Source: Arenicellales bacterium (GTDB lineage Bacteria; Pseudomonadota; Gammaproteobacteria; Arenicellales; JAJDZL01). Taken from it: a stretch of DNA of 64,000 bases. The notes beneath the pieces are model-generated. The model made no database searches, was not told where the DNA came from, and worked only from the letters and a program-made list of their open reading frames with translations. Positions 59,301 to 59,718 of this stretch are shown here, piece after piece. The stretch is from assembly GCA_964291225.2 (NCBI GenBank), contig OZ219781.1, positions 3,250,656 to 3,314,655 of the forward strand, in the 5' to 3' direction. Positions within the stretch are counted from its first letter, which is position 1. Each line of letters opens with the position of its first letter. The position numbers were made by a program, and so were the translations under genes.

Positions 59301-59718
59301 TGCCAGAGGGAGAGGATGGAACAAGGTTGACCGAAAAGCTCGCCGGCGCCGCCTCGCCGAGCGTGACGGTGACGGTCACATCCGTGAAGCCGGAATTGCC
59401 CTCGGTGATCGAACTTGACGCCACCGACAGGGTGATGGTCTTTGTCTGCGCCTGCGCAGCTTGCGGCACAAGGGCGACGGCAAATGTCAGCAGAAGAGCG
59501 GCAGCAAACCCTGCCCTCAGGCGGCGAAGAGTACTTCTTGGCGGGTCAGACCGCTCTGCACCCCCCCCCCCCCCCCTCAGTTCGTTGGAAGCGCCGAAGC
59601 GACTGACCGCATCCGCAGGCCGCTTCTCAAGCAACCGTACAGCTACGCCGTCTCTCAGTCCGGCTGACAGGGATTTGATACGACAGTTCAACAGTTTCTT
59701 TGCATTCAACATGTTCAT
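56371..59718 (-). CDS. autotransporter (type Va) outer-membrane protein with a Calx-beta and FN3 passenger
   Basis: 1115 aa. The signal peptide is 'RLRAGFAAALLLTFAVALVPQAAQA|Q', at aa ~66-90. Calx-beta-like modules are present ('EIPITEDFVDENDETFTVTI'). There are two FN3-like modules ('VVLSWTKPAGTITGWQYRQ..DAEYRFRIRAKN' and 'VVLSWPAKTEVAFWILQYKE..GTEYAFRMEA'). The C-terminal ~300 aa have alternating beta-strand character and end in '..LSGSLRW', an aromatic terminal residue as in OM beta-barrels. Confidence 0.75.
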   Translation of the reverse strand: MNMLNAKKLLNCRIKSLSAGLRDGVAVRLLEKRPADAVSRFGASNELRGGGGGAERSDPPRSTLRRLRAGFAAALLLTFAVALVPQAAQAQTKTITLSVASSSITEGNSGFTDVTVTVTLGEAAPASFSVNLVPSSPSGTAKGSNKGSEPCTAPLNPADTDWCLPAGSTISIATGQTQGTKAVRILGDTRQEPNETVKLYASANGSASASWTAGRLTFTIVNDDASPAAPTGVTATGGNRHVVLSWTKPAGTITGWQYRQSKGAGNWGDWTDIPSSSATTTSHTVTGLDNDAEYRFRIRAKNNAVNGQQSAVRKATPTGRLKKPVVTAVAGDREVVLSWPAKTEVAFWILQYKESKESWTDQSKVQNRNVLPTGSDPVRRVVWGLTNGTEYAFRMEARPMPNSGQEQSVWSNEVKATPMPMLKVPVTLTVSEDVGDATIPITVGNPTGKIVTLSVTYTDGTATGANNPAAGDYDNDAVSSVTFSATDTTKNIEIPITEDFVDENDETFTVTIALSSGTFALGNTTTTVTIQDNDTEGVVLSASELTVEEGGTGTYTVKLGTLPSGSVTVTPTSDTATVATVSGPLTFTTGNWNAEQTVTVTTEQDDDSADGTAKVSHAVTGYRLVTTGGTVSVKVTDDEKLSVELRKEHEGSIHELHVQFGQSMIGVANDIIVSRTSGAVSGRQNSMLIAGRQVLFGPTHSSAVPLPPAYTDKPLQLDGDVELTRQRVDSVLDLLSDSSFNVSSATGQSSVEGGMTLWGRGGKTSFKRNGAGRSIDGSVTVGGIGFEFSQADWMGGLAYFRTRGKGNVTTTKDGDSAKSEEKVMMNSVHPYVHWQASEEVELWGTLGYGTGRADSRLQLAADSTEHRKGRMELLSALLGTRVSWDFDLAFKGEVSASRTTSKGLSATPMKSNQRQYKAVVEWSRLQALSDGGQLLPKVEAGVRYDDDSYSTGLSMLLAGSVRYTDADGRWSVEAGGSVLRSRASKRYRENGVYVGVELRSGADGFGPSMSIKATQGELVEALQSAWAESAIDDSVSEREESDGVGTQLEFGYGLAMGAGHMKPKVSVLLPAESGSRVYETGFEYRRGGLSLELTHTHKPAADRGDGIRLSGSLRW
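59561..59576 (-). repeat. 16-nt homopolymeric G tract (C16 on the + strand) inside the 5' coding region of the autotransporter
   Basis: I counted C at every position from 59561 to 59576. With 16 nt the frame reads ..NELR-GGGGG-AERSDPPR.. and joins the ATG at 59718 to the signal peptide. Confidence 0.95.

Follow-up and report, generated by a model that had tools for sequence, protein, structure and literature searches.

A homopolymer tract ahead of the signal peptide as a candidate phase-variation switch of an autotransporter-like gene in an Arenicellales bacterium

In an uncultured marine bacterium of Arenicellales type, a run of 16 consecutive G residues lies between the start codon and the signal peptide of a gene for a predicted autotransporter-like surface protein, and this run is likely to be a slipped-strand phase-variation switch of an autotransporter-like adhesin. 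The gene is found in a stretch of 64 kb (referred to here as the window, meaning the whole of that stretch) from a source genome assembled as one contig of 3,425,439 bp. According to the proposed mechanism, translation would start at the ATG at position 59718 or at that at 59712 and pass through a leader of 47 codons, after which the ribosome would cross the tract as RGGGGG and reach the signal peptide of a surface protein with Fn3, Calx-beta and beta-barrel domains. Slipped-strand mispairing in replication would add or remove G's. Tracts of 13, 16 or 19 G's would keep the frame (ON), while other lengths would lead to a stop after 56-67 residues, before the signal peptide (OFF), and no downstream start codon would rescue export. 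As each family member has its own poly-G or poly-C tract, a population could display varied combinations of these surface proteins.

The G16 tract and its reading frame

The minus strand of the window reads 16 consecutive G's at positions 59561-59576 (C16 on the plus strand), within an ORF of 1115 amino acids that runs from ATG 59718 to position 56371 on the minus strand, with the stop codon included. Both the sequence and the ORF call confirm the original prediction on this point. The tract occupies codons 48-53 (AGG GGG GGG GGG GGG GGT), translated as RGGGGG, and is preceded by the leader coding segment (59577-59718, minus strand), which comprises M1-L47 and the first base of R48 and in which ATG 59718 and ATG 59712 are the only start codons. 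When tract lengths were simulated, lengths of 13, 16 and 19 gave the full ORF (1114-1116 amino acids), lengths of 14 and 17 gave products of 56/57 amino acids, and lengths of 15 and 18 gave products of 66/67 amino acids. In silico, the upstream ATG is therefore joined to the signal peptide by tracts of 13, 16 or 19 only. A TGA (59579-59577) directly abuts the tract on its upstream side, and the two shifted frames are closed by TGAs at 59548-59546 and 59519-59517. The original prediction had described the tract as the sole in-frame link between start codon and signal peptide, and had held that the gain or loss of one nucleotide would truncate the product; the simulated lengths bear out both statements, with stubs of 56-67 amino acids at 16±1 and 16±2.

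Also as predicted, no in-frame ATG, GTG or TTG was found between the tract and the hydrophobic core of the window gene. The sole CTG after the tract lies at +13 codons, and the first GTG, at +30 codons, is already at the end of the h-region. The CTG was considered as an alternative start and rejected, as it is not conserved in the paralog at locus L001 and has no Shine-Dalgarno sequence. Thus, as in a contingency locus, the number of repeats sets whether the full product is made in silico, with no start codon to rescue it. These observations bear on the possibility that the true start lies 3' of the tract, or that the run or its exact length is an artefact of assembly, in which case the tract would not gate translation. 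Such an explanation would be consistent with the absence of a clear Shine-Dalgarno sequence ahead of ATG 59718, with the poor conservation of the leader amino acids and with the error-prone consensus of long reads in homopolymers. However, ATG, GTG and TTG are absent between tract and h-region at nine other Arenicellales-type loci as well as in the window, the CTG is not conserved, three independent assemblies each have tracts at the homologous site, and the upstream frame is open to an ATG in most copies, making a downstream start or an artefact extremely unlikely.

Long runs of G or C are rare in this DNA. The G16 is the sole G/C run of 8 or more in the 64-kb window, for which shuffled sequences give 0.47 8-mer matches; apart from it, a T9 at 17962-17970 is the one homopolymer in the window that reaches a length of 9. 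Across 235 kb, made up of the window and related loci, 16 G/C runs of 11 or more were observed in comparison to 0.55 expected, of which 15 sit at the homologous gene position, and the same 235 kb holds no further run of 9 or more. The G16 is thus a simple repeat, in frame and longer than expected by chance, as is characteristic of contingency loci. The sixteenth run, a G13, lies some 60 codons from the start of a type III restriction Res-like gene (PF04851) at locus L005 of the related MAG OZ220493.1 and splits the gene on the minus strand into a 78-amino-acid stub (L005 5244-5480) and an ORF of 919 amino acids (L005 2437-5196). In silico, G11 or G14 would restore a protein of 1013/1014 amino acids, and the sequence suggests that the Res-like gene represents a second phase-variable-looking gene class in this MAG. 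Type III restriction-modification systems, best known in this respect for their mod genes, are among the classic examples of phase variation.

The leader, the predicted protein and the origin of the gene

The leader of the window gene is homologous to those of its paralogs, and its amino acid sequence is without visible constraint. Between the window leader and the paralog leaders 25 of 48 codons differ, and a hand count on the alignment with L001 placed 10, 11 and 13 substitutions on codon positions 1, 2 and 3, respectively. An extension of about 65 amino acids before a Sec signal peptide is unusually long, with no sign of purifying selection on its sequence; together with the missing Shine-Dalgarno sequence, this gives ATG 59718 the standing of a candidate start. 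Like the ESPR, the leader is an N-terminal extension that precedes the classical signal peptide of a large secreted protein of the outer membrane, but it has no sequence similarity to the ESPR, is much longer (about 60 amino acids before the n-region) and is not conserved in sequence between paralogs. In agreement with the earlier statement that the leader is unlike the ESPR, the ESPR family was not among the Pfam matches of the protein at E <= 0.01. The leader had also been regarded as odd, which is true of its length and its unlikeness to the ESPR; however, it is not peculiar to the window gene, as the presence of a leader is a conserved feature of the family. A profile search of proteins with the leader found only P0125, the leader ORF of an OFF copy, and one decayed relative.

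On the upstream side, a block of about 370 nt (59719-60085, minus strand), the presumed 5' UTR and promoter, is conserved with paralogs at other loci, and the 3' flank (55686-56370, minus strand) shares 80-90% identity with paralogs over about 450-680 nt. As these paralogs are found at unrelated loci, the duplicated unit includes long non-coding flanks. Conserved blocks, for example 'CTGTTTGTGTGTCAGGTGCAACTGAAAGA', are present in the upstream region of the window gene. A sigma-70 scan of that region found no convincing promoter, and an Rfam scan of the 5' region returned nothing but a chance CrcZ match (E = 0.84). Two ORFs on the minus strand (59627-60025 and 59854-60234) were considered as genes and rejected, as they have no Pfam matches and are broken by indels in paralogs. 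In the paralogs at L007 and L008, a perfect sigma-70 consensus (TTGACA-18 nt-TATAAT) is located about 190 nt upstream of ATG-C(n) (L007 ~2810-2840), which indicates a long 5' UTR holding leader ORFs in these poly-C paralogs. With the promoter lying over 150 nt away in the 5' direction, the tract does not work through promoter spacing, in contrast to the tracts of fim. Phase variation through a promoter spacer was accordingly rejected, as the tract lies far 3' of the likely promoter and inside the sole open frame.

The predicted signal peptide, read by eye from the translation, has the canonical pattern of the Sec type and covers R61-A90 (59449-59538, minus strand), with an n-region at R61-R68 (RSTLRRLR), an h-region at A69-V84 (AGFAAALLLTFAVALV) and a final PQAAQA/Q, in which AQA/Q falls at residues 88-91. 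It aligns with the signal peptides of 16 relatives, with the n/h/c pattern behind an extension of 60 amino acids. A search of the JGI metagenome collection with an exact 28-mer taken from the region of the signal peptide gave no match. Domain comparison places a first passenger domain at amino acids 89-228 ('TITLS...ITEGNSG'; 59035-59454), followed by a Fibronectin type III domain at amino acids 229-313 (58780-59034; PF00041, E = 8e-13), a Calx-beta domain at amino acids 427-534 (58117-58440; PF03160, E = 1e-9) and, from homology and modelling, a C-terminal outer-membrane beta-barrel domain at about amino acids 700-1115 that ends in ...GSLRW (56374-57621), all on the minus strand.

The original prediction had called the product an autotransporter. 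The C-terminal domain of the window protein (about 415 amino acids) has no Pfam match even at E = 10, but 10 of 13 homologous C-terminal domains match PF03797, the autotransporter beta-domain, with a best E of 1.7e-13. The domain is homologous to 58 other proteins, and almost every one of the 59 has W, F or Y as its last residue; the window protein itself ends in the C-terminal aromatic residue (beta-signal) of type Va. In an AF2 model (pLDDT 72.5), the domain forms a barrel of about 19-20 strands, in comparison to 12 in classical autotransporters, and on this model it may be an enlarged or atypical barrel. Foldseek retrieved the beta-domains of the autotransporters BrkA (3qq2) and Hbp (3aeh), but also generic large barrels, those of LptD and of TonB-dependent proteins, while a profile search of PDB sequences with the domain found nothing. 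The label of autotransporter is thus held through transitive homology, and as strict membership of type Va is not established, the description of the predicted product as an autotransporter-like outer-membrane surface protein is justified.

The composition of the gene differs from that of its surroundings. The window gene has a GC content of 0.60 and a GC3 of 0.71, compared with a GC3 of 0.33-0.43 in six neighbouring housekeeping genes and a genome of about 44% GC; the stretch that deviates in GC from its flanks spans window positions 56250-59700. The first passenger domain is 62-68% identical to domains in other, mostly high-GC, genomes and only 37-45% identical to the domains of its own paralogs. 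The gene body (56097-58964) has 91.5% DNA identity to the poly-C-type paralog at L007, and the 5' end (59428-59878) has 76-77% DNA identity to poly-G-type paralogs. With 5' end, first passenger domain and body each nearest to different relatives, the window gene is a recombinant mosaic, and its GC3 in combination with the mosaic domains indicates horizontal exchange. Together with the deviant composition, the presence of homologs in genomes of 60-70% GC from one metagenome suggests that the gene was acquired horizontally. The original prediction considered a switch of this kind unusual in a low-GC host. The host is low in GC, but the gene itself is foreign in composition, so the point concerns a horizontally acquired cassette.

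Tract lengths among paralogs and relatives

A homolog search found at least 10 paralogs in the source genome, at least seven of which have a poly-G or poly-C tract at the homologous site or are truncated as by an out-of-frame tract, with the tract states of the source paralogs other than the window gene deduced from protein N-termini. P0122 has a leader like that of the window gene and reads through as 'RGGGAERS', and P0011 reads through as 'ELGGGGLRC'. P0008 and P0123 begin with 'MPPPSH' and 'MPPPPSH', which correspond to poly-C directly after the ATG. P0124 is 99.6% identical to P0123, yet begins inside the signal peptide, and P0005 begins at an internal codon 3' of the signal peptide. The truncation of P0005 is exactly that of P0010, a copy with G13 in the assembly ERZ24894574, and the two proteins are 94.6% identical, so the truncated source copy corresponds to the G13 copy; P0122 pairs in the same manner with P0004 (94.8% identity). 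These N-termini suggest that the two truncated source paralogs, P0005 and P0124, are OFF.

In a close relative in ERZ24894574, L001 (P0004) has G12 and an intact ORF of 1924 amino acids. L006 (P0010) has a near-identical 5' region but G13, and its leader was called apart as the 59-amino-acid ORF P0125 (ending in KLRGGGGRAI), while its main ORF was called from an internal GTG, without the signal peptide. Intact and split copies therefore coexist. In a sister type from the same assembly, the ATG is followed by C12 in L007 and L009 and by C15 in L008. The lengths of the sister type form the series C9 (inferred from protein), C12 and C15, and those of the leader type of the window gene are G12, G13 and G16. 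Among the poly-C paralogs, an ATG is connected by two frames out of three. A search of a species-representative genome collection found as its only matches four paralogs in the MAG Arenicellales bacterium OZ220493.1, whose tracts (C11, C18, C12 and C13) share one conserved site, some 13 codons ahead of the signal peptide. Tract-length variants in relatives, proposed in the original prediction as a check, were thus found for all three series, and the length is polymorphic among related genomes, as in contingency loci, in comparisons made between paralogs and between relatives and not at one identical locus within a population. The assemblies look long-read (with hifiasm-style contig names), and homopolymers of 12-21 nt can be miscalled by one base in such assemblies, which makes individual ON and OFF calls uncertain.

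The genomic positions of the paralogs differ between genomes. One paralog locus of OZ220493.1 has flanks in synteny with window positions 7359-26197, at about 72% nucleotide identity, which places the source near Arenicellales; opposite L003 6160-14151, the window has a different segment of 3.4 kb (17228-20623) with no family gene. Paralog positions are therefore not conserved between the source genome and OZ220493.1. Elsewhere in the window, a stretch of 318 nt (4180-4491) is 78% identical to L001 2211-2524, which lies just upstream of the conserved 5' block of the L001 paralog, and no family gene adjoins it in the window. L007 and L009, two short contigs of one assembly, have identical 5' regions and C12 but differ within the gene (P0002 in comparison to P0006), a pattern that hints at strain-level cassette shuffling that fragments the assembly. 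An IS110-family transposase (L007 1-1180) adjoins L007.

Whether the tracts are maintained or merely present can be judged from their persistence. If the tract were real but inert, it would be a mutational by-product of a horizontally acquired, GC-rich cassette, and the truncated paralogs would be decaying pseudogenes. Consistent with this, P0007 keeps the leader but has a decayed tract, P0003 and P0026 have ordinary N-termini and never had a tract, and P0005 and P0010 are truncated in both strains, as a fixed frameshift would look. In contrast, long tracts persist at the homologous site down to about 60% protein identity and across 44-70% GC, as poly-G and as poly-C, although, in the absence of selection, point mutations would be expected to have broken up runs of 11 or more. 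Additionally, OFF copies are otherwise intact across 1300-1800 codons. Of 12 Arenicellales-type copies, 9 are in frame, where random frames would give one-third; this large excess also speaks against pure noise in the assembled lengths. An inert tract is therefore very improbable.

Outside this group, four unrelated genomes of 60-70% GC from the ERZ24894574 metagenome carry homologous genes with tracts at the homologous position (C19 and C13 in L010, C21 in L011, C15 in L012 and C14 in L013). In these high-GC relatives, an in-frame GTG or ATG follows the tract at a distance of 26-27 nt and precedes the signal peptide. Of the two shifted frames of the leader, one terminates at a conserved TGA located 7 nt ahead of this start codon and the other runs across it (L010 9569-9609; L012 1460-1503; L013 1459-1503). 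With a start codon after the tract, the tract in these genes need not be a simple translational ON/OFF switch, and the arrangement of the codons may represent a three-state rather than a binary switch. The window gene lacks this start. When the region from tract to signal peptide was aligned for 17 members, the GGGGG of the window gene fell opposite the 'SGRG' of the relatives ('GGGCGCGGGG' in DNA), whose poly-Pro run lies 3-4 residues upstream of it. A profile of the same region retrieved 40 representative clusters among 1.84 billion proteins, about half of them annotated through P(3-11) and about half as a short form, 'MGALGRTARRL', which is called in the high-GC relatives when the leader is out of frame. 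The leaders of P0054, P0072, P0126, P0127, P0129, P0131 and P0136 share 'GMHDLRLSGRG.SASRA.EPEL' before the poly-Pro run, and this shared motif means that the leader may act sequence-specifically there, unlike the unconstrained leader of the window gene.

The start codons after the tract, the neighbouring TGA with the other frame overlapping, and the frequency of the short form also argue for an RNA-level rheostat, in which slippage of RNA polymerase would yield mixed-frame transcripts whatever the length of the DNA tract, or the leader would be an upstream ORF that couples to or occludes the main start according to where it stops, as fixed by the tract length. Transcript slippage is possible on runs as long as the RNA-DNA hybrid. 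However, the window gene and the Arenicellales paralogs have no start after the tract, so coupling to an upstream ORF does not apply here, and a purely RNA-level mechanism would not need the assembled DNA lengths to differ between copies, as they do. A rheostat of this kind is thus unlikely as the main explanation of the G16. Within a slipped-strand switch, transcript slippage on the G16 or an RNA G-quadruplex could blur its binary behaviour.

Relation to known switches and significance

Homopolymer tracts in the coding regions of autotransporters are established switches, as in NalP/MspA (PMC3723659) and tcfA/bapC (PMC1891110). In Neisseria meningitidis, poly-C tracts leave nalP ON at lengths of 7, 10 and 13 and mspA ON at 6, 9 and 12, and the tract lengths range from 6 to 15 and vary between strains (PMC3723659). 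The window gene resembles these genes in having a homopolymer in the 5' coding region of an autotransporter-like gene that would be ON at every third length only. It differs in the position of the tract, which follows a leader of 47 codons and lies ahead of the signal peptide, and in a passenger that consists of Fn3 and Calx-beta repeats instead of a protease. It also differs in the presence of at least seven paralogs per genome with the tract or a matching truncation, and in its uncultured marine Arenicellales-like host. In Bordetella pertussis, homopolymer tracts of the autotransporter family were the most variable loci, with rapid and reversible switching (PMC1891110). The likeness to tcfA/bapC lies in homopolymer tracts in genes of the autotransporter family, but the tracts in Bordetella belong to single genes, and those of fim, which are poly-C, work in promoters. 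From what is known of NalP/MspA and of tcfA/bapC, we infer that the window gene would undergo replication slippage at high and reversible rates, that its product would be exposed at the surface and that switching would be of adaptive value.

Paralogous or lineage-variable autotransporter adhesins with poly-G tracts also occur in Chlamydia (Pmp) and Campylobacter (capA type), with a passenger architecture unlike that of the window gene. We know of no report from these of a horizontally shared unit of leader, tract and signal peptide. To our knowledge, nearly all documented cases of homopolymer phase variation come from cultured bacteria that are pathogens or commensals of vertebrates, and a literature search that combined symbionts with phase variation found nothing relevant. 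The mechanism is thus already known. What appears to lack an earlier description is its setting, which combines an uncultured marine Arenicellales-like genome with a multigene family and with a tract position conserved across 44-70% GC.

A broader reading, offered tentatively and as possible rather than probable, is that leader, homopolymer and signal peptide form a portable contingency cassette that is passed on horizontally, along with Fn3-rich proteins of an autotransporter-like family, among bacteria of 44-70% GC that live together, and that this would produce stochastic surface coats community-wide. The carriers of such a cassette would probably be host-associated (sponge-type). Where the start after the tract is kept, the switch may have three states: a long form fused to the leader, a short form that is coupled to termination of the leader, and occlusion.

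Automated gene calling breaks up or shortens these genes, with leader ORFs of 59 amino acids, GTG starts inside the gene and the short form 'MGALGRTARRL' as the result. In annotation pipelines and in work on long-read MAGs, the tracts should therefore be handled as variable sites rather than as pseudogenising errors. If read data confirm switching, environmental or invertebrate-associated communities would make routine use of stochastically varied surface proteins, with phage, grazers or host recognition as candidate pressures, and the family would carry a hypermutable site able to move between species together with its gene.
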